Below, piece after piece: positions 1 through 64,000 of a stretch of DNA of 64,000 nt. The position numbers were made by a program, and so were the translations under genes. This DNA comes from an uncultured virus (IMG/VR IMGVR_UViG_3300043425_000347) (Duplodnaviria > Heunggongvirae > Uroviricota > Caudoviricetes). The notes under the pieces were generated by a model, which was not told the DNA's origin, did not search any database, and saw only the letters and a program-made list of their open reading frames with translations. Location of the stretch: IMG/VR virus record IMGVR_UViG_3300043425_000347; one strand, given 5' to 3'. Positions within the stretch are counted from its first letter, which is position 1. Every line of letters begins with the position of its first letter.

Positions 1-125
1 TGACGTTCAAGCCCTATGGCGCAAGTACGGCTGGACTCCACCCTCGGAGAACATGACGCCACCACCTGCGCCAGCGCAAACCTTCACCCCTGTTATCTTT
101 TTCAAATAAACCCAAGGAGAATCTC

Positions 126-662
126 ATGCCTGATATTAAAACTGCATTGGAAAAAGCACTCAACGAGTGGACCGACGACGCTTCGCCCGCTGCGGCCAAG
201 CCCGAGCCTGCCCCTACCAAGCCCTACTTCACAGTGACCAACAACGTGACTCGCGTTACGTTCGACTACGTGCGAGACAACCCCGGCAAGACCCGCAAGG
301 AAATCGCCGTTGCGCTGGAGAAGCAAGGCTACAAGAGCAGCTCTGTAACCTCGCTGCTGGGGCAGATGGCCAAGCAAGGCCTTGTGCGCGATAGCACCGG
401 CCTGCTGTACGTCACGACTAGTGCGTACACCCCGTTGAAAGCATCCAAGAAGATGAAGGCTGTGGCCGAGACGCCGCAAGCACCGCAGCGCAAGAAAGTT
501 GTCCTCATCAACAAGCGCACGGGCGAGATTGTCGCAGCCGCGCCCAAGGTCGAGCCTACCCCGGTGGTTAAAGAGTGGGAGCCCAACGATGTGATCGACA
601 AGCTGACTGTGCATCAAGCCATCGCCCTGTTCAAAGCACTGCGTAACATTTTGGTGGGGTGA
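126..662 (+). CDS. hypothetical protein, probable winged-HTH DNA-binding domain
   Basis: AAGGAG RBS at 114-119; wHTH-like segment DYVRDNPGKTRKEIAVAL...VTSLLGQMAKQGLV. Confidence 0.6.
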   Translation: MPDIKTALEKALNEWTDDASPAAAKPEPAPTKPYFTVTNNVTRVTFDYVRDNPGKTRKEIAVALEKQGYKSSSVTSLLGQMAKQGLVRDSTGLLYVTTSAYTPLKASKKMKAVAETPQAPQRKKVVLINKRTGEIVAAAPKVEPTPVVKEWEPNDVIDKLTVHQAIALFKALRNILVG

Positions 663-4100: not shown

Positions 4101-4297
4101 GCGTGCCGTACAACGACGATGCCCGTGAAGCGTATGTCCTGCGTAACAGTGAGAACCACTTGGAAGTTGCCAAGAAGCATCACGCGCTCGGCCATGCCCG
4201 GTCAATGTGGATTCAGCTTTTCGTGTGGGCCATGCGCGAAGAAATCTACGGCGAACACTGGGACCGGATAACGAATCAACCAAGGAGAAAGACATGA
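4097..4297 (+). CDS. hypothetical protein
   Basis: GTG start overlapping the upstream stop, AAGGAG RBS. Confidence 0.5.
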   Translation: MSVPYNDDAREAYVLRNSENHLEVAKKHHALGHARSMWIQLFVWAMREEIYGEHWDRITNQPRRKT

Positions 4298-9259: not shown

Positions 9260-9274
9260 CAACAGGAGAAAGCA

Positions 9275-9487
9275 ATGTACATGGTATTTAACATCGGCTG
9301 CATCGAGTGCGGCGTATCGTCCAAGATCGTCGGGCTGTTTGCTGACAAGAGCAAGGCCGAAGAGGTGCGCAAGATGTGTGAAGAGCGCCATCACTGGCGA
9401 GAGAGCGGGCAGAACGCGTTTGAGGTATACGAGCTGCCGCAGCCCGAACACATCGACGAAGAGTACACACAAGGAGAAAGCAAATGA
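9275..9487 (+). CDS. hypothetical protein (NIGCIECG)
   Basis: AGGAGAAAGCA leader. Confidence 0.6.
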   Translation: MYMVFNIGCIECGVSSKIVGLFADKSKAEEVRKMCEERHHWRESGQNAFEVYELPQPEHIDEEYTQGESK

Positions 9488-10692: not shown

Positions 10693-10707
10693 CTACCGGA
10701 GAAAGCA

Positions 10708-12267
10708 TTGGACATCATCGACAACAAAGCCGTTGTCTTCAGAACGCGCAATCCCGACAAGTACAGCATCATTCCCAAGCACAAAGTGTTTGACCGCGAG
10801 GATGGCAGCTACGATGTGGCTGTGTACTGGGGCTTGGACGAGGCGCGTGTCCTGAAGAATCTAGGCGTGAAAGACATCCAGTCGCCGATCACTCGGCGCT
10901 ATGAGTGGCCGGGGCGTTACAAGCCGATGGCTCACCAAGTGGAGACCGCATCGTTTCTGACCATGCACAAGCGTGCGTTTTGTTTCAACGATCCCGGCAC
11001 GGGCAAGACACTTGCCTCGCTATGGGCAGCGGACTACTTGATGAAGCTGGGGTTTGTGCGGCGTGTGTTGATACTGTGCCCACTGTCGATCATGCACTCA
11101 GCGTGGCTCAGTGATTTGAACAACAGCATCATCCACCGCTCGGCTATCGTGGCGCATCACAGCAAGGCATCCCGCCGCATCGAGATGATTCAGCAGGACT
11201 ACGAGTTCGTGATCTGCAACTACGACGGGCTGAACCTGATTGCCGAGGAGATCAAAAACGATGGTCGCTTTGATCTGATCATTGTGGATGAGGCCAACGC
11301 CTACAAGACCGTGACCACCAAGCGCTGGAAGACTCTCAAGTCGATCATCACGCCGAAGACGCACCTGTGGATGATGACCGGTACTCCTGCATCGCAGTCG
11401 CCTGCTGATGCGTACGGGCTGGCCAAGCTGGTCAACCCTGACAACGTGCCGCTGTTCTTCACAGGATGGCGCGACTCGGTGATGAACAAGATCACGCTGT
11501 ACAAGTGGGCACCCAAGCCCGATGCACGCGACCGCGTATTCAATGCGCTGCAACCAGCGATCCGCTTCTCCAAAGACCAGTGCCTTGACTTGCCGCCAGT
11601 GATGACGCTCACCCGCGAGGTGCCGCTGACTCCACAGCAGGTCAAGTACTACAACTTGCTCAAGGACCAGATGCTGGTGCAAGCCGCAGGGGAGGTCATC
11701 ACAGCGGTCAACGCCGCTGCTATGCTGAGCAAGCTGCTGCAAGTCTCGGCTGGTGCTGCGCTCACGGACACCAAAGAGGTGGTGGAGTTTGACGCTGGCC
11801 CACGGCTTGGCGTGCTGGAGGAAATTCTGGAGGAGACATCGCGCAAGGTCATCGTCTTTGCGTTGTTCCGCGCCAGCATCGAGACCATCCAGAAGCACCT
11901 GACATCCAAGGGCATCACCAACGAGTGCATCCACGGCGGCGTGTCTGCGACCAAGCGCGGCGACATCATCCACCGCTTCCAGACCGACCCCGACCCAAGG
12001 GTGCTGGTCATGCAGCCTGCGGCTACAGCGCACGGCATTACGCTGACTGCTGCCGACACCGTGGTGTTCTACGGCCCGTTGATGAGCGTGGAGCAGTACA
12101 TCCAGTGTATTGCCCGTGCCGACCGCAAGGGGCAGAACTCCGACAAGGTGACAGTCTTCCACATCCAGAGCTCCCCGGTGGAGTCCAAGATGTTCAAAGC
12201 CCTCGGAGCGAAAGTGAGCGATAGCTCACTTCTGACTGAGATGTTTACCCTTGAAATAAATTCTTGA
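10708..12267 (+). CDS. SNF2-like superfamily 2 helicase
   Basis: Walker A DPGTGKT, IVDEA, MTGTP, GITLT, Q...RADRKGQ; TTG start after GGAGAAAGCA. Confidence 0.92.
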   Translation: MDIIDNKAVVFRTRNPDKYSIIPKHKVFDREDGSYDVAVYWGLDEARVLKNLGVKDIQSPITRRYEWPGRYKPMAHQVETASFLTMHKRAFCFNDPGTGKTLASLWAADYLMKLGFVRRVLILCPLSIMHSAWLSDLNNSIIHRSAIVAHHSKASRRIEMIQQDYEFVICNYDGLNLIAEEIKNDGRFDLIIVDEANAYKTVTTKRWKTLKSIITPKTHLWMMTGTPASQSPADAYGLAKLVNPDNVPLFFTGWRDSVMNKITLYKWAPKPDARDRVFNALQPAIRFSKDQCLDLPPVMTLTREVPLTPQQVKYYNLLKDQMLVQAAGEVITAVNAAAMLSKLLQVSAGAALTDTKEVVEFDAGPRLGVLEEILEETSRKVIVFALFRASIETIQKHLTSKGITNECIHGGVSATKRGDIIHRFQTDPDPRVLVMQPAATAHGITLTAADTVVFYGPLMSVEQYIQCIARADRKGQNSDKVTVFHIQSSPVESKMFKALGAKVSDSSLLTEMFTLEINS

Positions 12268-12317: not shown

Positions 12318-12335
12318 AAAATATAGGAGAAAGCA

Positions 12336-12752
12336 ATGACTGAAGACATCGAAGAAGCACCGGAAGTTGAAGCAATTCCGCTCGACAAGCTGGTCGCCAT
12401 TCACTCCAAGATCAAGGCCAAGATGGAAGGCCTTGATCGCCAGCTCGCTGAGCTGGAGGAGACGCGCACGCAGGTGCGCCTCGCAATCAAAGACCAGATG
12501 AAGGCCCTCGGCCTGACATCGGTCCAGACCTCCACGGGAACCGTGTCGTTGATGAAGAAGACGCGCTACAACACACAGGACTGGGACTCGTTCAAAGCAT
12601 TCGTGCTTGAGCATCAAGTCGTAGACCTGTTGGAAAAGCGCATCGCCCAAACCAACATGGCACAGTTTCTGGAAGAGAACCCCGGCGTTGTACCGCCGGG
12701 GCTGAACTCAGTCACTGAGTTCGACATTCGTGTAACCAAAGCAAGAAAGTAA
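12336..12752 (+). CDS. conserved phage replication/recombination-region protein (coiled coil, DWD motif)
   Basis: Sits between helicase and SSB; TGTVS...DWDSF...LLEKRI...PPG pattern. Confidence 0.6.
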   Translation: MTEDIEEAPEVEAIPLDKLVAIHSKIKAKMEGLDRQLAELEETRTQVRLAIKDQMKALGLTSVQTSTGTVSLMKKTRYNTQDWDSFKAFVLEHQVVDLLEKRIAQTNMAQFLEENPGVVPPGLNSVTEFDIRVTKARK

Positions 12753-12759
12753 CGCAATC

Positions 12760-14404: not shown

Positions 14405-14409
14405 ACAAC

Positions 14410-14425
14410 AGGGGCTTCGGCCCCT
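14410..14425 (+). other. cUUCGg tetraloop hairpin AGGGGCTTCGGCCCCT (no U-tract)
   Basis: Perfect 6-bp stem; identical copy on the - strand at 48849-48864. Confidence 0.7.
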
Positions 14426-14431
14426 ACTACC

Positions 14432-14710: not shown

Positions 14711-14832
14711 CCGACGAAGAGTTGATGAACTATATCTACATACAGAACTACGCTGTACCCGTTGAGTTTGTGCAGGAGTTGTGGAAGCGCTACGCTGCGC
14801 TGCTGGACGCCGCCGAAGACGACCTGAAGTAA
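14683..14832 (+). CDS. small hypothetical protein (LTDEEL)
   Basis: GGAG RBS; fills the gap before the primase. Confidence 0.5.
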   Translation: MSRVQPQALTDEELMNYIYIQNYAVPVEFVQELWKRYAALLDAAEDDLK

Positions 14833-14852
14833 CCCATTCCCGAAGGACCCTC

Positions 14853-17831: not shown

Positions 17832-17979
17832 GCGGGGGCAGGGGTTTTTCGTCCCCTGCCTCGACACCGAGAAGGTGCGCAGCACCGGCCTCAATGAAGC
17901 GCTGCGCTGCCGTATCTTCGACGCCAAAGCCTACCCCGCCGTCCACAAGGGACTGAGCGGGGTGTGGTTTTATCGCTGA
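17791..17979 (+). CDS. small conserved phage protein (FPW...GQGFFVPC...GVWFYR)
   Basis: Last gene of the + block; converges on the late block. Confidence 0.55.
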   Translation: MTRYSRVFPWLRVKRGQGFFVPCLDTEKVRSTGLNEALRCRIFDAKAYPAVHKGLSGVWFYR

Positions 17980-43000: not shown

Positions 43001-43207
43001 ACCCGTAAAGCCTGTTGTTGTTAAGTTTCTGCAAAATACCACTGCGGTAACAGTAACCGTCACCGCACCAGACGCTGCGTTAAAGAACACATCGTCAGCC
43101 GCAGTAGGTTCGCTTGCGCCGCCAGCGCCGCCAGACGTGGCAGACCACTTGGTGCCCGCAGTGCCGTCCCAGTTTGCTGTACCGCCAACCCAAAATCTGT
43201 CGGCCAT
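37085..43207 (-). CDS. large repetitive tail fibre/adhesin, 2040 aa
   Basis: Thr/Gly/Ser-rich beta-solenoid-like repeats; recurring WVGG..NW / PKTVYW...FPLAQD units; C-terminal W..I...Q...W repeats. Confidence 0.75.
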   Translation of the reverse strand: MADRFWVGGTANWDGTAGTKWSATSGGAGGASEPTAADDVFFNAASGAVTVTVTAVVFCRNLTTTGFTGTFAGSSNIRIDGSLTLNAGVTFTHTGTFQFTAASGSYTITTAGKTVGGVSLAPLALSTATWTLGDALTSSGQITVTQGTFTTNNFNVTATSLSSSNSNTRTINLGSSTITLTAAGAAILNISDSTGLTFNAGTSQINFTSVTTATLSGPTTGSPITFYNVAFTGIRTTSQLPGNSITGVNIFNNLAFVGPSVAAVVQTTFAARQTINGTLSTSGTAGNRRLWFSGATYGIAQTLTINSAPSLTDADFRDIYVIGTAAPISGTRIGDLRGCRGITFSTPKTVYWNLAGTNAWTANAWASTSGGTPNTDNFPLAQDIAVIDNSSAGSTIQTLASSTPMAMSTIDASLRTAAITLDTGTSTYYGDFKLGSGVTITGASISTFSGRNTQTITSAGKTFAGGITVDSYGGTVQLADALNIGSNTLTVTNGTFNTQNYNVTAGSLSSSNSNVRAISLGSSTVTLSGTSPVSFGVVNLTFNCGTSSIVCSSASTVSFTGAFQTFYDVSFTGAGGLRQLSSVATYRNLSFTAPSSAGLTGVSVSGDQTITGALTVAGATAVRRIFLRSDTLGTTRTLTVNSLSAQDCDFRDIAIAGAAAGSSPTRAGDCGGNTGITFPAPKTVYWNLAGTQNWSATAWAPGSGGTPALNNFPLAQDTAVFDNTGSVTGLISIDQAWNIGTFNASARTSAMTFNTSGSALGVVYGNWLLGTGLTVFDNSGTLTFSGRGTQTITSNGVTFGCPVTIACATGTVQLADALTVGSNRTLTLTSGTFDAVTYNVTTGTFTGQQFTTLKMGAGTWTLAGTGTVWNLSSSGISNFNKGTANIVLSNTTTTGRSFIGGSMSYNRLTIGGATGTSTLTISGNNQFTELASTKTVAHTIALGTTTQTFGAWTVTGTAGNVVTVTGTAALTIAGAAVSGVDYLALGTTTVSATSPGEFYAGANSTATGATAPLYLTAKPADSTRYWVGGSGNWSDTARWSTTSGTGSGASVPRSHDDVVFDSGSNATAYTATVNAVTGGIRCKALTIAGPASGNVTLAGSTAIVGVHGNVTLPATGLTRTYTGAITLSGSATGRTLTTNGVALSSDITVNGVNCGWSLGSAADFGATASFLVTNGTFDTGNYNLTLLQLSSSNTNDRTINFGSSTVTFTSAGSAIIFTNSTNLTFNTGTSSIVLSGGGPSISGGSGQTFYNVSFTANTTSTISILGVNTFSNLSFSAFTTSSIRVVSFGADQTITGTLTLSAGADATVRTFVQSNSLGTTRTLTCAAVASLTDIDFRDITIAGAAAPVSGTRLGDCKGNSGITFDAPKTVYPTGSFSSANWGSGIWSTTQGGAQTTTAFPLAQDTVVVTSTVPTAGGTLSLNANYNIGTIDMSARTSNTMTLAVGTQTPAIYGNWINGTGTTLTGTGTLTFAGRGSQTITSAGRTFTQDFTIATPSGSVTLQDAFATSRTLTLSSGTFNAAGYNATLGLGLSATGTNVRTLAIGSGTWTSTGTGTTAWAAQTSTNLTVTGTGTISLTSASAKTFAGGDISYSGITLDQGGAGTLTITGNNTFANITNSYKATGATTIAMGTTTQRVGNFTASGEAGRVLTVQGTSASSPATLVYTGTGQAAQPAIDYLTITGVRAYSLDATWYAGNNSTNNGSLGWYFEAGGGGPIAVFIIESASANSSESSLGTFNPTISELATGSETGATNAVLLGTLSESVTVADAIDAVRAFYAEVVEAATASDVVSAARTLAAAIISESAQGQESVVARAILNSLVSDSATVSDLAAGGLLFSGSVSEAAAAAEFALATFLFTGFVTESATAQDAAAVVASIFSAASAESAVAFDAPQGANTGSSSLSESASGSDSSATAFVASTAVSESTTAEDSAASIAVFNGPIIETATALDESSVAPSVFSAVAAAVAAAFDSQNAPGSIYNAALPTEGARASDSLIGAYLWNPIDDNQTPNWQNITNSQGSGWTQINTDDAPNWQPTIQP

Positions 43208-53689: not shown

Positions 53690-56133
53690 TGGTTACCGGG
53701 ACCTTTCCTTTGGTTTTGGGCAGCAGCCTGTTGTCTGCTTCTTGCGATGTCAACGCCCATGCGGACGCCGTCACGTTCTTGGTCAGCTTCCAGCTTGTCG
53801 GCCTTATAGGCAGCGTCAATCTGCAGCGCTTTTTCCTTGAGTTCCAGCTCGTCGGCTTTGGCTGCGGCGTCAATCTGGAGTTTCTTCTCCTTGAGCGCCA
53901 ACTCGCCTTGTTTGATTTGCAACTCCTGCTGTTGCATTTGTACAACAGGGTCTTGCTGTTGCTGCTGCGCTTGCTGTTGAGCCGCTTGCGCTTGGCTTTG
54001 CTGCAACACCTGCTGGGCGGCTTGGGCCATCATGCCGGACAGGGCGATCTCAATCTGAGGTGGCAGCTTCTCGTCTTCGGGAGGCAGGGGCATCCCCAAC
54101 TGCTGCTCGATCTTCTGGCGGTAGCCGAAGCCAACGTGCTCTGCGATGTGGGCCATCATGGCCGCTTGAATCTGCGGTGCGCGGGGGTTTTGGCCCACCA
54201 ACTGCATGATGATCGGGTCCTGCATGGCCGACATGTGCACTTGGATATGCGCCTGATGGTCTTGATACTGGAACGCCTTTAAGGGTTTACCCTTAAGTGC
54301 GTTCATGTTCTCTGACACTGGGTCGGTCGGCTTTTGGTCTTCTTCCAGCGGCACGAGCTTGTCGGCGTTTTTGATGCCCAGCACCTCCAGCATCCCCCGG
54401 TGCAGCTTGGGCAAGTCATAAATGTCAGGCGCAGACTGCGCCAACTGGATCACAGCCTGATACTGCACCACACGCTGGGACAGTGTGGCTGCGTTTGGGT
54501 CGCTCACGGGCAGGATGTCCACGTGGCGGTAGTCGCTCTTCTTGGCCCGTGGGCCTTGTTCGCCGTCCGGCTCGTAGGTGTACTCGTCGTCGGTGTAGTC
54601 GCGGATGATGACTGCCAGCAGCTGGAGTTCTTGCTTCAGTGTGAAGTGCACACGGGCCTGAACAGCCGTCATGACCTTGAGTTGGCGCTCCAGCAAAGCC
54701 AGAGTTGAGCCCACAGGCGCGTTGGCACCCATGTCGCTGATCTTCATGTCAGCGGTCGCGGCGAACCTGCGGCCCTCTTCCACCACGGTGTTGAGCAGCT
54801 GGTACAAAGTCTGTGATGGGTCTTTGTAAGGCAGCGGTAAGATGTTGTCGCGGATATTGCCCGAGCCCACATCCACGTCGCGGAACTCACCCGGAGCGAT
54901 CGGCGTGTCGTCGCCCTTGATCCGCAGACCACGGGACTTCAAACCGCCGGGCAGGTTGGACAGCGTACCTGCGTCGATCAACTGACGCATGAGGGACGTT
55001 GCGGAATTGGCAAACCCACCGATCAGGTGGAACAGACCGAAGCCATACGCCCCGAAGCCGGGGATGTACTGGTAGTGCACGAAGTGCTGACGCTTCAAGT
55101 GCAGGCTGTCGTCCTCGTTCCAGTTGCGGCGGATGGCCAGCACGGTGTTTGAGCCACGGATGTACGTGACCACGTACGGCAGCGCAATCCCAACAGGCTC
55201 ACCGTCATCGTCCTTCTCGCACAGCGGGTCGCCCTTGAGCACCAAGTCCACGTGGCTCTCGCACAGCGTGAAGCGCTCGTCGTTCAGGTCGGCAAAGCCG
55301 GTCTCTTTGTCCTTGGCCTTGTTGATCTCGTCGATCGCCTTGTCGGGGGAGCCGATGTCTACGTCGCGGTAAAAGCCAGCCTGCTGGAGTTTGATGATCT
55401 CGTTTTCGGTCTTGCGCATGACGTGCGTGACGCGGTAGCAAGTCTGGATGTCCGAGGTGCCGTAGGGCAGCAAAATGTCTTCGGCAGGAATAAATACAGA
55501 CGTTTGACGGCCAAAGTTGGGGTCGAAGTAGACCTTTTTGAACGCCGAGCCGGTGGCTGGCAAGCTCCACAGCATGCGCTCGTGCTCTGGGCGGAACTCC
55601 TGCATGACCTCCGTCAGCTGGAAATTCATGTCCTCTTGGACGCGCATGGCGGCGTCTTTCTTCTCAGGCGTCTCTTTGCCGATGATTTTGGTCCGTACGG
55701 GACCCATGGCAGGGAAGGTTTCCGTGATGGTTTCGCTCTGGAAGCGCACCACCGCCTCTGTGATCATCGGGTGGAACACGCCGGACGCGCCATCCCAAGG
55801 CTCTGTGCGCTCCTCGATCTGCAAACCCAAGAGTTTTAAGCCCGTGACGTAGGCTTTCTCCCACTCTTTGCGGGAGTTGCGGTCGTTCTCAATGTCCGAG
55901 ACCAAGTCCGTGATCATGGTCGCCATCTGGTTCTCGGGCAGGTACTCGGCCAAGTTGGCATCGAAGTCGTCGATGCTGGGCTCGCCCTTCTCTATGCTGA
56001 TCTCCACATCACCCATGTCGATGTTCACAGCCTCCGGGTCCACGATCTCAATTTCGATCGGCTCTTCCATGTCGCCTGCGGCGTCGATGCCCATGGGCTG
56101 CTGGTAGAGGGCTTTGTCAATGTTGGTCGCCAT
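53686..56133 (-). CDS. portal protein (P22-like)
   Basis: 815 aa after TerL; SR.EWE, GSAFKKVY.D, YGFGL, Gln-rich C-terminal barrel. Confidence 0.88.
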   Translation of the reverse strand: MATNIDKALYQQPMGIDAAGDMEEPIEIEIVDPEAVNIDMGDVEISIEKGEPSIDDFDANLAEYLPENQMATMITDLVSDIENDRNSRKEWEKAYVTGLKLLGLQIEERTEPWDGASGVFHPMITEAVVRFQSETITETFPAMGPVRTKIIGKETPEKKDAAMRVQEDMNFQLTEVMQEFRPEHERMLWSLPATGSAFKKVYFDPNFGRQTSVFIPAEDILLPYGTSDIQTCYRVTHVMRKTENEIIKLQQAGFYRDVDIGSPDKAIDEINKAKDKETGFADLNDERFTLCESHVDLVLKGDPLCEKDDDGEPVGIALPYVVTYIRGSNTVLAIRRNWNEDDSLHLKRQHFVHYQYIPGFGAYGFGLFHLIGGFANSATSLMRQLIDAGTLSNLPGGLKSRGLRIKGDDTPIAPGEFRDVDVGSGNIRDNILPLPYKDPSQTLYQLLNTVVEEGRRFAATADMKISDMGANAPVGSTLALLERQLKVMTAVQARVHFTLKQELQLLAVIIRDYTDDEYTYEPDGEQGPRAKKSDYRHVDILPVSDPNAATLSQRVVQYQAVIQLAQSAPDIYDLPKLHRGMLEVLGIKNADKLVPLEEDQKPTDPVSENMNALKGKPLKAFQYQDHQAHIQVHMSAMQDPIIMQLVGQNPRAPQIQAAMMAHIAEHVGFGYRQKIEQQLGMPLPPEDEKLPPQIEIALSGMMAQAAQQVLQQSQAQAAQQQAQQQQQDPVVQMQQQELQIKQGELALKEKKLQIDAAAKADELELKEKALQIDAAYKADKLEADQERDGVRMGVDIARSRQQAAAQNQRKGPGNQ

Positions 56134-56141
56134 GTGTGTTC

Positions 56142-57674
56142 CTAGTAGTACGCCGCCCTGCGGCGCATGAATGTGCGGTCTTCCTGCTCGTCAGAGTCAA
56201 GGGGGATAAACCCGCCCCGGCGGAAGCGTAACAGTGCTTGAGATGTGGTGTCAACGTAGTCGTCGTTCTCTCCGTTGGGGAACGATGCAACTTCCTCAAT
56301 CACCTCGCGTGCCCACCGAGTGTCTGGAGCCCAGACCACGCCAGAGGCAAAAAGGTCCGCCACCGCGTTGAGCCGGACAATTTTATCGTTGCCGCGACTG
56401 GGGCTGAACTCCTCGACCGGGATACCCACGGCCCGAAGCTCTTGGATCAGCGGCGCACCAGCGGCTTTCTTCTCAACAATGAACGCATCTGGCGACCACT
56501 CTTTATAGTGTTTGAGCGCAATCGCTTTCAACTCCGGGAACGCCATCCGGTCTTTGAACGCGTCCAGCAGGATCACCTGCGCCTGATCGCGCTCTTCCTC
56601 GTTGTAGAACACCCCCCACGTGGTGCACGCAGAATAGTCAGCCGTGGTCTTGGCTTCAAACGCCGTATCCCAGCTCTGGATGATGTAGTCGCAGCGGGGC
56701 GGCTCATCGCCCTCCCATACCCGCCAAGACGTGCGCGAGATGATCGCTGCGCTGTTGCTGGTGGGCTGCTGCATGTACTGGGCGTTCCAGTACTGGGGGT
56801 CAATGCTGGCTTTTGTCGCCTTGAGGGTGGCCAGTGGCCACTGCTCTGGCCAGAGCGACTTCTCGTTGTCCGTACCCTCGTTGAGAATTGCGGGGAGTTC
56901 GACTATCTCCCACGGCTCAGCGTCAGGATTCTTGGCTTGGTAGTCGATCAGGCGTCCAGTCAGGTCCAGCTTGCCCCAGCGCGTCATCACAATGATGATC
57001 GCACCGCCGGGCATCAGTCGCTGCAGCGGCCCCGTCTGGAACCAAGACCACGCAGTGTCGAACGCCAGCCTTGAGTTGGCCTTAACGTCCTGCTCCGAGT
57101 GAGGATCGTCAATAACGAACAAATCAGCACCACGACCAGCAAGAGCGCCGCCGACACCAGCAGCATAGTACTGACCGCCAGCACTTGTAGACCACTTACC
57201 GGCAGCTTTTTGATCGTCGGCCACCAGTGTTTGTGGAAAAAGACCATGGTAGTCCTCGTCAGCCAGCAAATTTCGCACCCGGCGACCGAAGTCTTCCGAC
57301 AAACCCGCCGTATGGGTGCCCATGATGATCTTCTTCTGGGGGAAGTTGCCCAAGAAGAACGCCGGGAACAGGTATGAGCTGAACTCAGACTTACCCATAC
57401 GTGGCGCGATGTTGATGATCACGCGTTTTTTGGTTCCGGCGATCACTTCGGAGAAGATTTTGGCCAGCTTCCTGTGGTGCGGCCCGATTTTGAAGCCCGG
57501 ATACACGCTCTTGGCGAACTCGATCATGTCGGTTCGCGCCAGATTTCTCTGCTGGTGCTCCTGCGCCTTGTCCAGCAGCTCCAACGCCTCCAGCTTCTCG
57601 GCAGCCGTGAGCTTGCCAAGGTTTTTGAACAGCGCCGAGGCTTGTTCAGGCGTCAGTGGCGGGTTGGTCGTCAT
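56142..57674 (-). CDS. terL: terminase large subunit
   Basis: Walker A APRMGKSE, Walker B LFVIDDPH, MTRW, nuclease SWDTA...DYSA...DDYVD. Confidence 0.95.
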   Translation of the reverse strand: MTTNPPLTPEQASALFKNLGKLTAAEKLEALELLDKAQEHQQRNLARTDMIEFAKSVYPGFKIGPHHRKLAKIFSEVIAGTKKRVIINIAPRMGKSEFSSYLFPAFFLGNFPQKKIIMGTHTAGLSEDFGRRVRNLLADEDYHGLFPQTLVADDQKAAGKWSTSAGGQYYAAGVGGALAGRGADLFVIDDPHSEQDVKANSRLAFDTAWSWFQTGPLQRLMPGGAIIIVMTRWGKLDLTGRLIDYQAKNPDAEPWEIVELPAILNEGTDNEKSLWPEQWPLATLKATKASIDPQYWNAQYMQQPTSNSAAIISRTSWRVWEGDEPPRCDYIIQSWDTAFEAKTTADYSACTTWGVFYNEEERDQAQVILLDAFKDRMAFPELKAIALKHYKEWSPDAFIVEKKAAGAPLIQELRAVGIPVEEFSPSRGNDKIVRLNAVADLFASGVVWAPDTRWAREVIEEVASFPNGENDDYVDTTSQALLRFRRGGFIPLDSDEQEDRTFMRRRAAYY

Positions 57675-58248
57675 CTGCGGGGGTGATTTCGGTGATGTCC
57701 GTGACTTCGGCGTCTGAGACGTTCATGAACTTGGCCAGCTTTTCTTTCAGGCGCTTGTCGATTTCGTCTTCGGTCATGTCGGTCTTCTTGACCTCGATCT
57801 TCTCAGTGAACAGGCCCACCTCTGTGACCTTGCCCAAAAGCCCAAGCGCCTTCAGGCGGATGTTGGCGTTGGGGTTTTCACAGTCTTCCAGCAGTTTGGC
57901 CACGGCGTACCCGCGCAGCTCCTTGGCTTGGTGGACAAATTCCCAGTCGTAGGCCGTCAGCATCCCCACCAGATGGCGCACAGCCGCAGGCGTCTCGATC
58001 TTGGAGACCATTTCATGCTGCGTGGTGATGGGGGAGGCGGTGGTCATGGCCGAGAAAGTTTCCCGCGCCTGCTGCTTTTCCAACTCGGAGACCGCCGTTT
58101 CGGCGTCTGGGACTCCCATTTCCTTGAGCCAGTCATTGGTGCTGATCTTGCCGTTGAGAAGTTCAACGGGCGGTACCTTCTCCGCAGGAGACGGCGCTTG
58201 TGACTTTGGCAAAACTTCGGGATCGAAGTCAAGGAGGTGGTCTAACAT
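57646..58248 (-). CDS. probable terminase small subunit
   Basis: Immediately upstream of TerL; RLKALGLLGK...VGLF. Confidence 0.6.
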   Translation of the reverse strand: MLDHLLDFDPEVLPKSQAPSPAEKVPPVELLNGKISTNDWLKEMGVPDAETAVSELEKQQARETFSAMTTASPITTQHEMVSKIETPAAVRHLVGMLTAYDWEFVHQAKELRGYAVAKLLEDCENPNANIRLKALGLLGKVTEVGLFTEKIEVKKTDMTEDEIDKRLKEKLAKFMNVSDAEVTDITEITPADDDQPATDA

Positions 58249-58280
58249 TTGGTCCTGACGGCTAAGGCCGGAGTTGCGGG

Positions 58281-58329
58281 TTGCTGTCCCGATGGCCGAA
58301 GTATATACTCACATCCGGCACTGGCGCAA
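58281..58329. promoter_or_regulatory. putative bidirectional sigma70 promoter around palindrome AGTATATACT
   Basis: + strand TTGCTG(58281-86)-17-TATACT(58304-09); - strand TTGCGC(58329-24)-18-TATACT(58305-00). Confidence 0.6.
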
Positions 58330-58401
58330 CTTGTTGTTCCTTTGCTTTCTCCTTGGGTCAAGCGACCCTCTTTAGCCCCGGCCAAAAGCCGGGGTTTTTT
58401 T
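58316..58401 (+). ncRNA. candidate trans-acting sRNA antisense to early-gene ribosome-binding sites
   Basis: Promoter upstream; seed TTGTTGTTCCTTTGCTTTCTCCTTG; hairpin GGGTC-AAGC-GACCC; intrinsic terminator; no plausible ORF of its own; 5' end inferred. Confidence 0.6.
58375..58401 (+). terminator. intrinsic terminator GCCCCGGC-CAAAA-GCCGGGGT-T6
   Basis: GC stem plus U-tract on the + strand, with no credible + strand gene upstream. Confidence 0.8.
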
Positions 58402-58720
58402 ATGCTTAGTTTTTTTCAAAAATTTTTAGAAATTTTTTGGGGCGGGCCGTGTTGTCAAAACTTAGACAAAACTGTGGCTGGATTTTTAAAATAATAGTTA
58501 GGTATTACAGAAGTAGTGGGAGCGGGTGAGGAACAGTGTTGTACTACGCGGCTGTGTTCGGCTCCAATAGTGGCCTATGGGGGTATGGTGGGGTCAGGAA
58601 AGTGGCCTTTTTGCATAGGAAATCGGGCTATCGAGGGCTATCAAACGGGGGTTGCCGGAAACTAGGGTTTGTCGAATGGGGACTGGCCCCAAGAGACACT
58701 CAACCCAACGGAGAAATACT

Positions 58721-59131
58721 ATGTCGAAACTGACCATTCAACAATTTGCCTTCAACACTGGCGCAATGAGCCGCAAAGTGCGTGATGCTGCCGACCCCTT
58801 CCATGCGGCCTACCTTGGGGCGACACCTGAGCAACGCAAAGACCTGCGCCATCGCTGGATGCTTGGCCACCTTGAGGGCCAAGGCTTCAAGGGCGTAGAG
58901 AGAATTCTCTCTGAGGGCAAAGGCGCTGGGGCCAAGCCTGAGCACGTCAAGGCTATCGACCGGGCTTCGAGCGACTTCCGCTACATGGTCGTGCGCCCCG
59001 AGACCAAACCCGCCGAGCCAGCCAAGTCCATGCGCCTGAGCCGTGACGTGCGTGCCGCTGCCGAAGCCTACCTTGCCCAGTTCGACAACGTGGCCGATGC
59101 AATCAAGGCTTTGCGTGCCGTGGCCAAGTAA
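58721..59131 (+). CDS. hypothetical protein, first gene of the early block
   Basis: GGAGAAA RBS; Ala/Lys-rich. Confidence 0.65.
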   Translation: MSKLTIQQFAFNTGAMSRKVRDAADPFHAAYLGATPEQRKDLRHRWMLGHLEGQGFKGVERILSEGKGAGAKPEHVKAIDRASSDFRYMVVRPETKPAEPAKSMRLSRDVRAAAEAYLAQFDNVADAIKALRAVAK

Positions 59132-59244
59132 ATGCGAATGATTCTCAGAGAGATTTCTCTCTCGAATTCAACGGGCGGGGCTGGCCCGTTGTTCCTCCCC
59201 ATGTCAAACCACGCCTAGCCAGCGTGCCCTTTGGAGAAACAGCC

Positions 59245-59433
59245 ATGTTCTGCTACGCAGTATTTCACAACAACACCCAAGTCAGGGTGTACCCATACGA
59301 CAGCGTGGGTAACGACTGGCAACGGGCGAGAGCACTCGCCATAGCCCTTGCTGAGAAGGCCGAGACAAACGGCTACCACTACACAGTCGAGCACTTCGGC
59401 GCGACTGATGTTGGCAAAACAATCTGGAAATAA
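59245..59433 (+). CDS. hypothetical protein
   Basis: GGAGAAA RBS. Confidence 0.5.
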   Translation: MFCYAVFHNNTQVRVYPYDSVGNDWQRARALAIALAEKAETNGYHYTVEHFGATDVGKTIWK

Positions 59434-59445
59434 GGAGAAACTTCC

Positions 59446-59673
59446 ATGCGTAACCACAAGCAACCCCACATCGAGACCCTGTGCCAGTGGCGTGACCAAG
59501 CAGGCGCACTCTGGTGCGCTCAGACCTACTACCCCAACGGCAAACGTGACACAACCTACACCATCCACCTCGTGAGCATGGTCGGCACCACCATCAGCAT
59601 CCCCTGCGCCTCAGTCTCCCAGCTGTGGCACGAGGTCAACATCCGCCAGCAACAAGCGTTGCCCGGCTTTTGA
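59446..59673 (+). CDS. hypothetical protein
   Basis: AAGGAGAAA RBS. Confidence 0.55.
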   Translation: MRNHKQPHIETLCQWRDQAGALWCAQTYYPNGKRDTTYTIHLVSMVGTTISIPCASVSQLWHEVNIRQQQALPGF

Positions 59674-59699
59674 GAGAGAATTCTCTCTGGCACAACTTT

Positions 59700-60060
59700 A
59701 GTTCACGCTTTTTGGGACTGTCCGAACCTCCATCGGGCGGACGCCCGAAAAGACAGCGTAAGTCGTTGATTTGTAAAGGCCTTTGTCTTTTCTTGTCCCC
59801 TCTATATATATCTATTAAATAATATAAAGATAAGGAAACTGTTTTTATATGTGTGGAGAAAAGCGTATGTTAAAAAAATTAAGTTCAGTCGTTGAGACCC
59901 CACAAAAAATACAGCTAGGAGGGACAAGAACGTGGCCAGCCCAGTATCCATGCGGGTTTCCAGTGTCCAACACAGCGTCCGCGTGAAGGAGGGTCGGACA
60001 CTTACTGCGTACAACACAGATTACTTCGATGTAATCTCCTATACAATCGACAGGCCAACA
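59700..60060. other. non-coding AT-rich element, candidate replication origin; IHF consensus at 59759-59771
   Basis: AT-rich core about 59800-59885 flanked by inverted TTCTTGTCCC/GGGACAAGAA; AATCAACGACTTA on the - strand fits WATCAANNNNTTR. Confidence 0.5.
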
Positions 60061-60087
60061 ACATCAACCCTCAAAACAGGAGCAATC

Positions 60088-60993
60088 ATGAGCGATCCGT
60101 ACAAGAAATACGCAGGCTACGCCTACCGGGAACTGCGAAGCAAGCTACTGCGTGACGGCGAACCACCCGAAACAGTTGACCTGACCATCGCCAACATCAA
60201 GCTGCAACGCAGTGCCCAGAGCATTGCCAAGCGACAGAAGAAAGAGTCCGACAGGCAGTGGGGCGAAGTGATCGAAGCCCTGCAACATGAGCGCCGGATT
60301 GTGCGAAGCATGGTGCGCTACAAGACCAAGACCCCAGCGCCTGAGCGTGACGAGTTCGTGCAGGCCTACTTCACTGTGCTTACCAAGCTGTACGAGAAGC
60401 TGGAAAAGCTGCGGCGCGTTGACCGGGAACTGCCCGAGCACTCGCACTGGACAGACTTTGTGCCCGAGCGCACCAAAGAAACCTTCCGCATAGCCGCTGA
60501 CGAAGTGCCGCCCCGTGACCGGGCCAAGTTCAAGCAACCCTTCCAACGCACAAGCCCCATCGACCTGTGCAACAGACGAAGGGCACGACTCCTGCGCTAC
60601 ACACGGGCCACCTTGGAGACAACCATCGTGCGGCAGGACGAAGACCCGGGCAACCCGAAGTTACCCCGCAAGGAGATGCTGTTGCGCGAAGCCATTAAAA
60701 GAGTGAACGCTTTGCCGGACAACGCCCACATACCCAACCATTGGGCGCAACTTGTGCCTGACCTGATGCGCTCGGATGATGACGACTCGATGCAGTCCGT
60801 GGTCAAGGCCAAGCCACCAAAGAGACGCGGCACGTTGACGCCTACCCCGATCAATGCAATGCCGATTGTGCAGAAGCTGACCGCAGACCTAGCGGAACAG
60901 CGCAAACAGCGGGCGCAGTTCATGGACCGCCAGTCTTTGGGCACAACGATCAAGCAACTGCTGGCCGTAACAGAAAAGCGCAATGACTCTTAA
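60088..60993 (+). CDS. hypothetical basic helical protein
   Basis: AGGAG RBS before MSDPYKK; 301 aa. Confidence 0.65.
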   Translation: MSDPYKKYAGYAYRELRSKLLRDGEPPETVDLTIANIKLQRSAQSIAKRQKKESDRQWGEVIEALQHERRIVRSMVRYKTKTPAPERDEFVQAYFTVLTKLYEKLEKLRRVDRELPEHSHWTDFVPERTKETFRIAADEVPPRDRAKFKQPFQRTSPIDLCNRRRARLLRYTRATLETTIVRQDEDPGNPKLPRKEMLLREAIKRVNALPDNAHIPNHWAQLVPDLMRSDDDDSMQSVVKAKPPKRRGTLTPTPINAMPIVQKLTADLAEQRKQRAQFMDRQSLGTTIKQLLAVTEKRNDS

Positions 60994-61083
60994 CGAGAGA
61001 GACTTTCTCTCTGACTTGGCTGTGCTATGCCGCCCACACAGCCGAGCCTACCCCAACGGGCGGCAACCCAAGGAGAAACATCC

Positions 61084-61302
61084 ATGACAACACTGACCGG
61101 ATCACAAATCGAGGCGGCTCGCCTCTTGACCCTACGCCAGATGCTGAAGCTGGAGCTCAAAGGACTGAGCAAGTCCCGTGGGCCAACGGCCTACTCAACG
61201 CTCAAGATGATGGGATGGAAAGGCACGAGAGAGAAAGTTCTCTCTGACCTTGACGCATGGCGTGATGACTTATTGACAACCAAAGGAGAAAGCAATGCTT
61301 GA
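61084..61302 (+). CDS. hypothetical protein (LKLE.KG..KSRG.TAY)
   Basis: ACCCAAGGAGAAA RBS. Confidence 0.6.
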   Translation: MTTLTGSQIEAARLLTLRQMLKLELKGLSKSRGPTAYSTLKMMGWKGTREKVLSDLDAWRDDLLTTKGESNA

Positions 61303-61504
61303 TTACACACCACACATGACAGAGAAACAACTCTACGAGGCAGCGTACAAGATGCGCCAAGGCGGCAGCTTTGCCTGCGCCATATCCGACGCGTTCTTTG
61401 TAGCAGACAAGAACAACCGCAAGAAACTGCTCTATGCGTTCGGCGATTTGTTCGTCGAGTTCGCACACACCCCATTCACACCAACCCAAGGAGAGCCAGC
61501 ATGA
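61295..61504 (+). CDS. conserved phage protein (GGSF...I..A...AD..N...L..AF)
   Basis: AAGGAGAAAGCAATG leader. Confidence 0.65.
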   Translation: MLDYTPHMTEKQLYEAAYKMRQGGSFACAISDAFFVADKNNRKKLLYAFGDLFVEFAHTPFTPTQGEPA

Positions 61505-61740
61505 ACGAAACACAACAACACTTCTTCGCCGCAAGCGTAATGCAATGGGTGACAACCAACGAGACGCGAGACTTACCCGCACTGCTCGACCTCATGAACA
61601 AGGACGGGTACACCTACAACCTGTTCCGTGTGCCCGGTAAGCACGACGCCACGTACAGCATCAAGATGTACCAGCCCCAAGTGGCGGGCACTGAGTGGCT
61701 CGGCACATTCACAGTACCAAAGAAGAAAGGACGCAAATGA
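61501..61740 (+). CDS. hypothetical protein
   Basis: AAGGAG RBS, coupled. Confidence 0.55.
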   Translation: MNETQQHFFAASVMQWVTTNETRDLPALLDLMNKDGYTYNLFRVPGKHDATYSIKMYQPQVAGTEWLGTFTVPKKKGRK

Positions 61741-61964
61741 ACTACGACCTCAATACCAAGGACGGCATGAACAACGCCGTTAAGTGGACGCAAGCCATGT
61801 TCGACACTGTCAACGATGGCGGTGTGTGGGTGGTGCCGCGTTCAATGACGATGGTACGCATCAACAAGAAAGACCGCATCGCAACGATCGTCGTTGGCTT
61901 TGCCCCCGACCCATCCCTACGCCAAGTCATCGAGGCTATGGGCTGGACTGTTGTCGTTGAGTGA
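61737..61964 (+). CDS. hypothetical protein (GGVW.VPRS)
   Basis: AAGGA RBS, coupled. Confidence 0.55.
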   Translation: MNYDLNTKDGMNNAVKWTQAMFDTVNDGGVWVVPRSMTMVRINKKDRIATIVVGFAPDPSLRQVIEAMGWTVVVE

Positions 61965-62056
61965 GATCAAGAGAGAGTTTCTCTCTGACGCCTTGATGGG
62001 TGGCGGCCATACCGGTATACCCATCATTCCAAACTTGAAACTAAGGAGAAAGCAAA

Positions 62057-63460
62057 ATGCCTACATGGAAAAATCTACGTGAAGCACACCAGTTTATGGA
62101 CTACGTGTTCTTGAAAGCCGCACGCATCGTGTCCGATGGCGTGCATGAGCGCGTCCGCTACGGCGAGTACCGCACTGTTGTGCCGGGCCGTCCGTGGTTC
62201 AACCAGCAACGCACACGTCATGCACTGCACCCTGCTGTGCACGAGATCATGACCGAGTACAAGTACCGCCCGCATAACTGGCATCAACTGTTGCTTGAGT
62301 GGCCACACAAGTCCATCACGGACCCCAACAGGCTGGCCTACACACGTGATGAGAAGTCAGCTATGCATGGCGGTGACAGCGACATCAAAGCGCAGGTGAC
62401 TACCATCGGTAAGTATCTGACGCGTCACTTCCCTGACGCACCATCCAATCTTATCCGTGACGTTGCGGCCAAGTTCACATACGGCGGCTCGACCAGCATC
62501 ACCAACGACATGGACAAGATGGTGTACGCAGTCATCAACGGCCCTCGCTCGTGTATGAGTAGCCACTTCGACATCAGGTGCGATGACGGCAAAACACGCC
62601 ATCCCTACGAGGTGTATGACCCATCGCTTGGCTGGGGTATGGCTGTGCGCTCCGAGGAGGGTGAGGTGCTGGGCCGTTGCCTTGTGCATGAGAGCGATGA
62701 GGGCAAGGGGTTTGTGCGCTCATACAAACGTGAGCGTGATGCGCGTTCGCACTCTGGTGCTGACGAGGCCATCGAGGTGTACCTGCAAAGTCTCGGCTAT
62801 GCCAAGTGGCGTGGCTGGCCTGAGCACGTGCGTATCATGCGCTATCCCCTGCGCCGTAACGGATTATTGATGCCATACATTGACGGCGGCAATCAGCACG
62901 TTGAGGAGGACGACGATGTGTTGCGTATCAGTAGCTACGATGGGTGGGAGGCGTGCAGTACCAGCGGCATGATCAACGGCAACGAGCATACGTGTGAGGA
63001 CTGCGGCGCTGGGTTCGACGATGACGATGGCGGCTGGACTGGTATCCATGAGGAGCACCATGTGTGCCAGCACTGTCTCGACAACGACTACACCTATGCG
63101 TACAGCCGCAGGGGTAACGAGTACTACATCCGCAACGACGATGTGGTCGAAGTCAATGGCTCGTGGTATGACATCAACCATCTGTCTGACAACAACATCG
63201 TCGAGTTGCACGATGGTGAGTACGAGGACCTTGACAACGCGGTGTACATCGAGTCAGAGGGTGCGTACTACCACGTTGACGATGACGACATCTGCCACGC
63301 CGAGGACACTGGCCGGTACGAGTTGAAACATGACTGCTGGCAGTGTGAGGAGTCACGCAACTGGTACACCGAGGACACCGACTACGTTGAAGTAGATGGT
63401 GACAAGTACCACCCTGACCATGCGCCTGAGCAAGAGACCAACGACACTGAAACAAACTGA
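62057..63460 (+). CDS. hypothetical protein with an SCM/GRCLV domain and a very acidic CxxC-containing C-terminus
   Basis: AAGGAGAAAGCAAAATG leader; CEDC, CQHC, CWQC; Asp/Glu/Tyr-rich repeats. Confidence 0.7.
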   Translation: MPTWKNLREAHQFMDYVFLKAARIVSDGVHERVRYGEYRTVVPGRPWFNQQRTRHALHPAVHEIMTEYKYRPHNWHQLLLEWPHKSITDPNRLAYTRDEKSAMHGGDSDIKAQVTTIGKYLTRHFPDAPSNLIRDVAAKFTYGGSTSITNDMDKMVYAVINGPRSCMSSHFDIRCDDGKTRHPYEVYDPSLGWGMAVRSEEGEVLGRCLVHESDEGKGFVRSYKRERDARSHSGADEAIEVYLQSLGYAKWRGWPEHVRIMRYPLRRNGLLMPYIDGGNQHVEEDDDVLRISSYDGWEACSTSGMINGNEHTCEDCGAGFDDDDGGWTGIHEEHHVCQHCLDNDYTYAYSRRGNEYYIRNDDVVEVNGSWYDINHLSDNNIVELHDGEYEDLDNAVYIESEGAYYHVDDDDICHAEDTGRYELKHDCWQCEESRNWYTEDTDYVEVDGDKYHPDHAPEQETNDTETN

Positions 63461-63473
63461 AGGAGAAACATCC

Positions 63474-64000
63474 ATGACAACACTCAACAAACAATCCATC
63501 CTGTACAAAACCTTGGCACGTGCGCTGTCCATGATGCGCCCACACAACAGCGAGGGTACACGCCGCCTGACTGACTGGCTCGAACAGCGTGCCCCTGCTC
63601 ATGCACGCACACATCGTGATGGTGCGGGTAACCTGCACGTGGACACACGCATCAGCCCTACCAACCGGACGCTGTTCGTTGCACACGTTGACACTGTGCA
63701 CCGCAAGGAAGGCCCCAACAAGATCAAGCAGACCAACACGCACTGGTACGCTGACGGGGCAGCTCTCGGTGCCGATGATGGCGCTGGCGTTGCGATGCTC
63801 ATGCACCTGCTACACGCTGGCGTTGATGCTTACTATGTGTTCACGCAAGGCGAGGAGTGTGGCGGCATCGGTGCTACGCATCTTGCCAAGACCCAGAGAG
63901 AACTTCTCTCTGAGTTCGACCGCGCCATTGCCTTTGACCGCAGGGGTATCGACAGCGTCATCACGCACCAAGGCCGGGGTCGCTGCTGCTCTGATGCGTT
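63474..64000 (+). CDS. M20/M28-family zinc peptidase (truncated by the window edge)
   Basis: Hand translation: ...FVAHVDTVH...LGADDGAGV...FTQGEECGGIG...AIAFDRRG. Confidence 0.85.
   Translation, partial: MTTLNKQSILYKTLARALSMMRPHNSEGTRRLTDWLEQRAPAHARTHRDGAGNLHVDTRISPTNRTLFVAHVDTVHRKEGPNKIKQTNTHWYADGAALGADDGAGVAMLMHLLHAGVDAYYVFTQGEECGGIGATHLAKTQRELLSEFDRAIAFDRRGIDSVITHQGRGRCCSDA

Follow-up and report, generated by a model that had tools for sequence, protein, structure and literature searches.

The 64,000-nucleotide stretch of DNA analysed here (IMG/VR record IMGVR_UViG_3300043425_000347, the whole of which is called the window below) comprises all or most of an environmental phage genome of freshwater origin, with a G+C content of 55.9%. 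In the control region between its two oppositely oriented gene blocks it carries a short + strand unit that is, very probably, a gene for a small RNA (sRNA) of about 85 nt. The predicted RNA displays a pyrimidine-rich seed that is complementary to a motif found at the start sites of a set of early genes, and on balance our analysis favours the view that the RNA acts in trans on the ribosome-binding sites (RBSs) of these tagged genes, which would thus form a regulon private to the phage. The names 'early' and 'late', used throughout for the + strand and the - strand block, respectively, follow from gene content and orientation. A preliminary description of the window had noticed the unit and proposed that it switches off many early or middle genes. 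The observation is confirmed here; the interpretation is plausible, passes the computational tests applied to it and is partly supported.

A conserved, probable sRNA unit beside terS

The preliminary description had pictured a self-contained + strand unit consisting of a promoter, a pyrimidine stretch, a GGGTC/GACCC hairpin and an intrinsic terminator, and all of these parts are present in the sequence (Table 1). The RNA 58316-58402 has a minimum free energy (MFE) of -34.5 kcal/mol (z = -3.5), and none of 200 shuffled sequences folds as well. The terminator stem-loop, called at 58374-58396, has nine pairs, seven of them G-C, and is followed by the T-run. The unit thus combines, as far as prediction goes, the attributes by which sRNA genes are recognised: its own promoter upstream, a Rho-independent terminator at the 3' end, a conserved and accessible seed, and complementarity to start sites above background (see below).

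Relatives were collected by a terL search of IMG/VR, which gave 80 loci at 79-97% identity among at least 600 matching stretches. The unit was expected to recur near terS in related phages, and it is indeed present beside terS in 70 of the 80 loci, in 56 distinct versions; in most of the remaining loci the sequence upstream of terL is too short to include it. When read in the terS orientation the order of elements is constant: an A-run (the T-run of the sRNA strand), a G+C-rich hairpin, a second, variable hairpin, the core (A/G)AGGAGAA(A)GCAA, a TTGC-containing stretch, the 10-mer AGTRTAYAnT, a stretch ending in CAA, and the start of terS. On the sRNA strand, the promoter has a TTG 17 nt before the -10 in 53 of the 56 versions and 18 nt before it in the other three, and the -10 itself is TACACT, TATACT or TAAACT (TAnACT) in all of them. 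The core TTGCTT(T)CTCCT is nearly invariant across 47 aligned sequences and is kept also in the 11 versions, the window included, in which the motif is followed by no start codon on the opposite strand. The stem sequences of the terminator vary among relatives, but all have the T-run on the + strand side and none has it on the terS side; a strong terminator always follows within about 70-130 nt. Some relatives show further features at this place. L053, L056 and L059 have about 40 nt inserted in the 5' region of the predicted sRNA, where they make up an additional hairpin (GCCAGTTGGCC...GGCCAA...), and what appears to be the 3' end of a tRNA gene (GGTTCGAnCCC...CCA) adjoins the sRNA terminator in L064 (about 3190-3228) and L013 (about 1885-1922).

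RNAalifold, applied to the MAFFT alignment, recovered only four pairs because the alignment program had misaligned hairpins of variable length, and the 47 distinct aligned sequences were therefore folded individually, on both strands. Nearly all of them follow the same plan, which consists of a 5' stem-loop, an unpaired UUCUCCU(U), hairpin 2 and the terminator, and both hairpin 2 and the terminator are built from many different stem sequences at one position. The sense MFE is below that of the antisense strand in 46 of the 47 cases, with a mean difference of -7.7 kcal/mol. Since strands rich in G and U fold better in any case, z-scores against dinucleotide shuffles of each strand were used, and these average -3.8 for the sense and -2.2 for the antisense strand, the sense strand being lower in 44 of 47 (p = 4e-13). 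By these measures the fold is selected on the + strand. Because the promoter, the strand-specific fold and the orientation of the terminator agree, a + strand RNA gene is the best reading of the unit.

Complementarity to the start sites of early genes

The gene map, which is based on open reading frames (ORFs) and was made in this analysis, holds 50 + strand and 41 - strand genes. Contiguous matches to the complement of 58331-58362 were compared between the 50 early and the 41 late start regions. Complementarity of at least 9 nt is found at 15 of the early starts and at none of the late ones, where the longest match is 8 nt, and 11 of the early starts reach at least 11 nt. Control pseudo-seeds, in which AAGGAG was kept and the flanks were shuffled, gave on average 0.75 starts with at least 11 nt, and none of 1,000 controls had as many as 11 such starts. 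Because these core-keeping controls fall short, the matches at early starts exceed plain complementarity to the Shine-Dalgarno (SD) sequence. In addition, the 13-mer AAGGAGAAAGCAA, with at most one mismatch, occurs six times in the window compared with 0.10 expected from shuffles; five of the occurrences are on the + strand, every one at a gene start, and the sixth is on the - strand at 58342-58354, inside the unit.

Co-folding energies give a similar picture. The net energy, after the cost of opening both RNAs, has a median of -8.15 kcal/mol at early starts versus -4.2 kcal/mol at late starts (Mann-Whitney p = 5e-6); values of -8 kcal/mol or lower are reached at 28 of 50 early and 6 of 41 late starts, and the top 11 are all early. 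The preliminary description had listed a series of reverse-complement sites at + strand starts, all of which are present, together with sites carrying a one-nucleotide bulge, which are present as well (754, 13843 and 14108) and read AGGAGAAGCA. Its further expectations, namely that early starts would be preferred over late ones, that the matches would be longer than SD pairing alone provides, and that early genes would rank highest in an interaction search of the IntaRNA type, hold in the counts and net energies given above.

The predicted targets with the longest matches are given in Table 1. In addition, an exact 15-mer match, GAGAAAGCAAAGGAA, lies at 2432-2446; an ATG 5 nt further on (2452) opens a small ORF of its own and overlaps the stop codon of the preceding ORF. 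In general terms, UUUGCUUUCUCCUUGGGU, together with CAU in most relatives, is the exact complement of a tag of the form (ACCC)AAGGAGAA(A)GCAA(AUG), and this tag is found on roughly 10-15 early and replication genes of the + strand.

Seed and tag in related genomes

Ten related contigs were analysed with the same gene caller, each being scored with its own unit. Long matches to the contig's own unit concentrate at early start sites, and hardly any are found at late ones. The matches in G009 and G010 are 16-17 nt long, (C)AAGGAGAAAGCAAATG, and occur on many unrelated small early genes, which differ from one another immediately on either side of the tag. The tagged genes of G010 share an identical AAGGAGAAAGCAAATG, which matches the unit exactly.

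The preliminary description had expected seed and target to covary among relatives, and this expectation stands at the coarse level: where the unit is degenerate or absent, the start-site motif is absent too. Degenerate cores are found in G007, G008, L071, L074, L075, L077, L079 and L080, which have almost no tagged start sites. Tagged early starts number 0 of 46 in G007 and 2 of 36 in G008, and there are none in the 12.2 kb available from eight degenerate-seed loci; genomes with a canonical seed have 1-11 tagged early starts each. The early genes of L008 and L010, which have no unit, use TGGAG-type sites. In G007/L075 the main core has degenerated to CUUUCCUUG, a second CUCCUCCUUG lies upstream and the early genes are without the GGAGAAAGCAA tag, and the seed may have turned over in this case.

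At the fine level the expectation of covariation does not hold strictly. Two states of the seed can be distinguished, A3 for units with GGAGAAAGCA and A2 for units with GGAGAAGCA. Early start sites in A3-seed genomes comprise 30 A3 and 4 A2 sites, and those in A2-seed genomes 11 of each; of the orthologous start sites, 31 agree with the state of the seed and 8 do not. In the partial early regions of 55 distinct loci, ten A2 sites go with A2 seeds and none with A3 seeds (Fisher p = 0.018, uncorrected for phylogeny), and the A2 seeds in these loci often face A3 sites (19). Strict A2/A3 covariation was therefore rejected, the association being only loose, and the match between GGAGAAAGCA or GGAGAAGCA and the start sites is a statistical one. 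A one-base bulge may be tolerated in the pairing of seed and target.

A host preference for the tag was also considered. terL relatives on short contigs that are binned in metagenome-assembled genomes (MAGs) titled Limnohabitans and Burkholderiaceae hint at a freshwater Burkholderiales host. The 12-mer AGGAGAAAGCAA occurs three times in 41 genomes of the genus of the Limnohabitans-titled MAG, one of these on the phage contig itself, compared with two occurrences of a control pattern; in the phage the AGGAGAAAGCAA-type tag has 5-11 copies per approximately 64 kb. The idea that the motif is simply the optimal RBS of the host is thus unsupported by these counts, in which the candidate genus itself comes from the MAG titles. 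The start-site tag looks phage-private, and this favours a reader of the tag that is encoded by the phage.

An overlapping promoter-like site for the late genes

The sRNA promoter overlaps a second promoter-like site that points towards terS on the other strand (Table 1), an arrangement absent from the preliminary description. On the terS strand, TAnnnT is found in all 56 versions, and TTGC stands 18 nt (47 versions) or 17 nt (8 versions) from it. The opposed -10 hexamers overlap by 2 bp in every version, and the variants of the 10-mer (AGTATATACT, AGTGTACACT, AGTGTACATT, AGTGTATAGT and others) all keep T-A-n-n-n-T in both directions. Of particular interest are the relatives L008 and L010, which lack the hairpins and the core entirely. 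Both have lost the sRNA -35 and -10 and kept the late promoter; in L008 the sRNA hexamers have become GTGTAA and TACACC, and the terS site is kept as TTGCCC-18-TACATT. Since L008 retains only the terS site, the late promoter-like site appears to be independent of the unit, and the sRNA promoter appears to be tied to the sRNA body.

Proposed mode of action

In the proposed mechanism, an RNA of about 85 nt would be made from 58317-58402 (+) under its own sigma-70-type promoter, TTGnnn-17-TAYACT. The exposed anti-SD sequence UUCUCCU would nucleate pairing at the SD of a target, and the duplex would then spread to 9-17 bp, covering the SD, the spacer and often the AUG; its extension would enter UUUGC, opening the base of the 5' stem, as well as the 5' arm of hairpin 2. 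As a result, 30S subunits would be kept off and about a dozen early genes would be turned down together. Pairing over the SD and AUG to block initiation is an established mode of action of RBS-targeting sRNAs. Because the two -10 hexamers overlap, RNA polymerase can probably occupy only one of the promoters at a time, and whether the sRNA is synthesised would thus depend on the late promoter and its state. The RNA might serve as a damper early on or as a shut-off at a late stage.

A broader picture, which we put forward only tentatively and which falls somewhat short of being likely, is that of an RNA-run regulon in which about 12 early and replication genes carry a 13-17-nt 'address tag' over the SD, spacer and AUG and are shut off by one sRNA. 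The same tentative judgement covers, as parts of one picture, the use of the 10 bp shared by the two promoters as a bistable switch, a link between late transcription and early silencing, and a possible silencing of co-infecting relatives, which have the tag in common with the phage.

Several points weigh against action at the early start sites. The -35-like TTGCTG matches the consensus at only 3 of 6 positions, and the promoter went unreported by a consensus scan because the scan requires 4 of 6 matches in each hexamer. The expression, ends and timing of the sRNA are all inferred from sequence, and if a host-type promoter produced the sRNA from the onset of infection, the early genes would be repressed just when they are needed. 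The covariation is loose, as in G002, L022 and L033, which have A2 seeds and mostly A3 targets. The co-occurrence of unit and tag appears to rest on few independent lineages, since the degenerate and lost versions seem to form one related group with similar terS starts, and covariation alone cannot separate an anti-RBS RNA from another RBS copy that follows the same consensus. The host assignment depends on how the MAG bins containing short phage-like contigs are titled. Read in the terS direction, on the - strand, the seed-bearing stretch of the unit is a perfect sense copy of the early start-site motif, GACCCAAGGAGAAAGCAAAGG; in the window no start codon follows this copy, which could nevertheless count as one more start-site motif, and in 36 of the 56 versions an ATG stands 5-7 nt behind it. 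In L024, L027, L032 and L049, four of the six relatives with a Cys-rich ORF in this direction (see below), that ORF ends on the terS ATG (ATGCTTGA overlap). Finally, part of the seed (UUUGC) is base-paired in the 5' stem.

The last point bears on the possibility that the RNA is real and has its main targets elsewhere, either in host mRNAs, as a general or selective shut-off, or in the titration of an RNA-binding protein, the long matches to early genes being a side effect of SD sequences with A-rich spacers. We consider this unlikely. The single-stranded part of the RNA is indeed only UUCUCCU(U), with paired flanks, and two Betaproteobacterial sRNA families of Rfam give sub-threshold matches that lie mainly over the CUCC motif and the terminator. 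A side effect of SD-like sequence is nevertheless hard to reconcile with the flank-shuffled controls, none of which reached the 11 starts of the real seed, with the identical 16-mers (AAGGAGAAAGCAAATG) that match the unit exactly on many unrelated early genes of G010, or with the near-absence of the 12-mer from the 41 candidate host genomes. The host-target view does agree with the units with degenerate flanks (G007/L075 and L080), which keep the promoter, hairpins and terminator and show no preference for early genes, matches of at least 9 nt being found at 4 of 46 early versus 3 of 44 late starts.

It is rather improbable, in our judgement, that the motif acts in sense on the - strand, as the RBS of a short leader ORF or as a standby site for ribosomes where the terS operon begins; the promoter and terminator of the + strand would then be incidental or do no more than insulate the early promoter. 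It is the chief competing reading, and the preliminary description was silent on the sense motif of the opposite strand. A start codon does stand 3-10 nt behind the SD on the terS strand in 45 of the 56 versions (ATG in 36, GTG in 4 and TTG in 5), but the motif is equally kept in the window and ten other versions without one. The ORFs behind these starts have 8 to 147 codons in differing frames, with no peptide common to the whole family, and their ends vary, some lying 79 nt before terS; in favour of a leader, the stop codon runs into the terS ATG in 8 versions, and 3 versions have the ORF and terS joined in one frame. One subgroup (L024, L027, L032, L049, L057 and L060) shares a Cys-rich ORF of 22-27 codons, M-x-C-(G/D)-N-C...C-I-V/L..IGKQG, which spans both promoter-like sites and may encode a real micro-protein there. 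Outside this subgroup, a properly spaced start followed by a conserved ORF or peptide was not found: the window has none, 11 of the 56 versions are startless and the remaining ORFs are erratic. Furthermore, the motif precedes the promoter-like site that points to terS (TTGC-17/18-TAnnnT in 55 of 56 versions) and would thus be absent from the late mRNA, and no conserved terS-direction promoter was seen further upstream of the motif in the window or its relatives. A sense role also leaves aside the terminator T-run, which is conserved only on the + strand, and the folding, which is selected on that strand. The frequent ATG has a simple account if the unit encodes an sRNA: the RNA carries CAU and would pair through the AUG of its targets.

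Least probable is that the unit is mainly a transcriptional device, in which firing of the + strand promoter occludes the late promoter, the terminator halts + strand transcription ahead of the early promoter and the RNA product is functionless; the 2-bp overlap of the -10 hexamers on opposite strands in all 56 versions and the strong terminator always within about 70-130 nt would suit such a device, but it leaves unexplained the nearly invariant CU core, its single-stranded display, the strand-specific fold and the exact match to early sites, and L008 and L010 manage without the unit and retain the late promoter.

Genomic setting

Megablast of positions 56000-60000 against GenBank phages gave no DNA match. 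The nearest terL is that of Phage DSL-LC04 (54% identity), followed by three HTVC023P-type pelagiphages (47-51%). In DSL-LC04 the genes upstream of terL share the strand of terL, and the nearest record, G001, is without a region corresponding to the sRNA unit. The early block of the window (58721-64000 and 1-17831, + strand) encodes a family A DNA polymerase, an SNF2-type helicase, an exonuclease and a DUF927 primase-like protein. A 76-aa early protein (3571-3801) has a weak match to a 'transcriptional regulator' family in PHROGs. With regard to the carrier or lysogen-like state suggested in the preliminary description, no integrase or repressor family was detected among 48 early proteins (PHROGs, E <= 1e-5), which by itself does not prove a lytic lifestyle. 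The late block (17821-58248, - strand) encodes terL, the portal, the major head protein and two giant proteins, one of 2976 aa (17970-26900) and one of 2040 aa (37085-43207), both on the - strand. The 2976-aa protein contains an LPD38 'large polyvalent protein' domain near its carboxy terminus and matches no further Pfam family.

The sRNA unit sits in a control region of 470 bp that separates the first late gene from the first early gene (start at 58721). Other elements of this region concern early transcription. The palindrome TGTC-N8-GACA (Table 1) looks operator-like, as if for a dimeric regulator of early transcription, and similar palindromes, for instance TGTCCAACGTTGGACA and TGTCTAATGTTAGACA, are found at the same position in most relatives. 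Between the sRNA terminator and the early promoter, at 58403-58440, lies a block of A/T tracts, TTTTTTTCAAAAATTTTTAGAAATTTTTT, which may be an UP element or bent DNA; close relatives have similar AAAAATTTTTTAAAAAATTTT blocks. The piece 58498-58540 opens a long 5' leader of the early block, which takes up about 230 nt ahead of the initial early ATG (58721). No other part of the intergenic region is conserved as widely: the piece has 80-91% identity in most matching relatives, and its flanks cannot be aligned.

The ends of two related genomes are also of note. The 68.3-kb contig G010 (L109-L112) repeats about 1.5-2 kb at both ends, with the same genes at 405-1460 and 66896-67951, which suggests that the genome is circular or terminally redundant, and G009 is classed by IMG/VR as having direct terminal repeats.

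Table 1. Positions of the sRNA unit, its predicted targets and neighbouring elements in the window
Feature	Position	Strand	Remarks
-35-like hexamer TTGCTG of sRNA promoter	58281..58286	+	From sequence
-10 hexamer TATACT of sRNA promoter	58304..58309	+	After 17-nt spacer; from sequence
Predicted sRNA, about 85 nt	58317..58402	+	Fold and 47 aligned distinct relatives; 5' end placed from the -10 position
5' stem-loop	58317..58346	+	MFE; base of stem pairs the RNA 5' end with UUUGCU of the anti-start-site stretch
Full anti-start-site stretch, CU-rich	58338..58360	+	Complement GACCCAAGGAGAAAGCAAAGGAA is the early-gene start-site motif
Single-stranded UUCUCCUU, anti-SD core, 8 nt	58347..58354	+	Unpaired in MFE
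Hairpin 2, GGGUC AAGC GACCC	58355..58368	+	MFE; hairpin at the same place in nearly all relatives
Intrinsic terminator	58374..58402	+	T-run on + strand only
-10-like TATACT, putative late (terS) promoter	58300..58305	-	Overlaps sRNA -10 by 2 bp on the other strand
-35-like TTGCGC, putative late promoter	58324..58329	-	Sequence and relatives
Best predicted target	9470..9486	+	Start of 102-aa gene at 9484; 15 nt contiguous, net -23.0 kcal/mol
Predicted target	62043..62059	+	Start of 467-aa gene; 14 nt
Predicted target	61066..61086	+	Start of 72-aa gene; 13 nt, ACCCAAGGAGAAA
Predicted target	61283..61297	+	Start of 69-aa gene; 13 nt
Predicted target	12325..12338	+	Start of 138-aa gene; 12 nt
Predicted target	9264..9277	+	Start of 70-aa gene; 12 nt
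Predicted target	110..128	+	Start of 178-aa gene; 12 nt
Predicted target	4280..4296	+	Start of 119-aa gene; 12 nt
Predicted target	10698..10710	+	Start of SNF2-type helicase gene; 10 nt, net -18.1 kcal/mol
Small ORF, about 42 codons	2452-2580	+	Hydrophobic peptide; absent from gene-caller output
First late gene	57646..58248	-	200 aa, terS position, no family hit; overlaps terL (56142-57674)
Palindrome TGTC-N8-GACA	58453-58468		Over the -35 (TAGACA) of the early promoter-like site
Early promoter-like site TAGACA-18-TAAAAT	58463-58492	+	Directly 3' of sRNA terminator

Relation to known regulators

To our knowledge, few sRNAs of lytic phages have a known function. Among host-encoded RNAs, RsaE/RoxS of Firmicutes is a multi-target sRNA with a C/U-rich anti-SD seed. 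The unit resembles RsaE/RoxS, as well as the anti-hemB (RF02837) and Betaproteobacteria toxic sRNA (RF02278) families, in having an exposed pyrimidine motif complementary to the SD, a Rho-independent terminator and many (here predicted) targets. Those sRNAs, however, are encoded by the host, whereas the complementarity described here is to a phage-specific tag and takes in its spacer and, in relatives, its AUG as well. No Rfam family was found at its gathering score; anti-hemB scored 27.0 against a gathering score of 49.5 bits and the Betaproteobacteria toxic sRNA 24.1 against 50, the alignments being mainly over the C/U-rich CUCC motif and the terminator. Because these scores are far below gathering, the unit is not a member of either family.

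Translational control of many early genes by a phage has a parallel in T4, where RegA is a translational repressor of many early mRNAs and RegB is an endonuclease that cuts GGAG in early SD sequences. The proposed system would likewise turn off a set of the phage's own early genes through a common feature of their start sites. The two T4 regulators, however, are proteins, whereas the reader would here be an RNA and the feature a tag of 13-17 nt.

Phage antisense RNAs that cover an RBS are described in the accessible text of a 2025 review, namely sar of P22 (acting on ant) and c4 of P1/P7 (acting on icd-ant) (PMC12197685). Like these, the RNA proposed here is a small untranslated phage RNA predicted to block translation by pairing over an RBS. 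sar and c4, however, have one target each, are encoded at or next to that target and play a role in immunity, whereas about 10-15 dispersed tagged early genes are predicted as targets here. Pairing in cis is also not indicated: in the window, the - strand opposite the unit carries neither a gene nor a start codon, and the unit lies upstream of the terS-direction promoter-like site, outside the transcript with which a cis-antisense RNA would be expected to pair.

The same text describes VpdS of vibriophage VP882 and PreS of lambda, which are trans-acting, Hfq-binding phage sRNAs that regulate host and phage mRNAs (PMC12197685). The unit is similar to these in being a stand-alone phage sRNA gene with its own promoter and terminator and a predicted action in trans. 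The targets of VpdS and PreS are mainly host genes or single phage mRNAs, and a start-site tag on an early regulon is not part of their description in that text. More generally, the phage sRNAs in the accessible part of the review act on single targets or host genes (PMC12197685). A full-text search of the literature outside subscription journals found no phage sRNA that acts against the RBSs of multiple targets, and the accessible part of the review contains none. An sRNA of the Pseudomonas phage PAK_P3 with complementarity to many RBSs of the phage was considered as a precedent and dropped, since the accessible text of PMC10914365 and PMC12197685 lent it no support.

The hypothesis of an anti-RBS sRNA is directly testable, since the system offers 56 natural variants, a defined promoter, fold and terminator, a short list of targets, and natural loss-of-function relatives (L008, L010 and the degenerate seeds). 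Should the RNA not act at the early start sites, the strict conservation of a 16-nt tag on unrelated early genes, and its mirror image beside the late promoter, would still need an explanation. If the hypothesis is true, the pair of tag and sRNA would be a compact, orthogonal translation switch, and a single RNA would silence the phage's own early regulon, as an RNA counterpart of RegA and RegB of T4.

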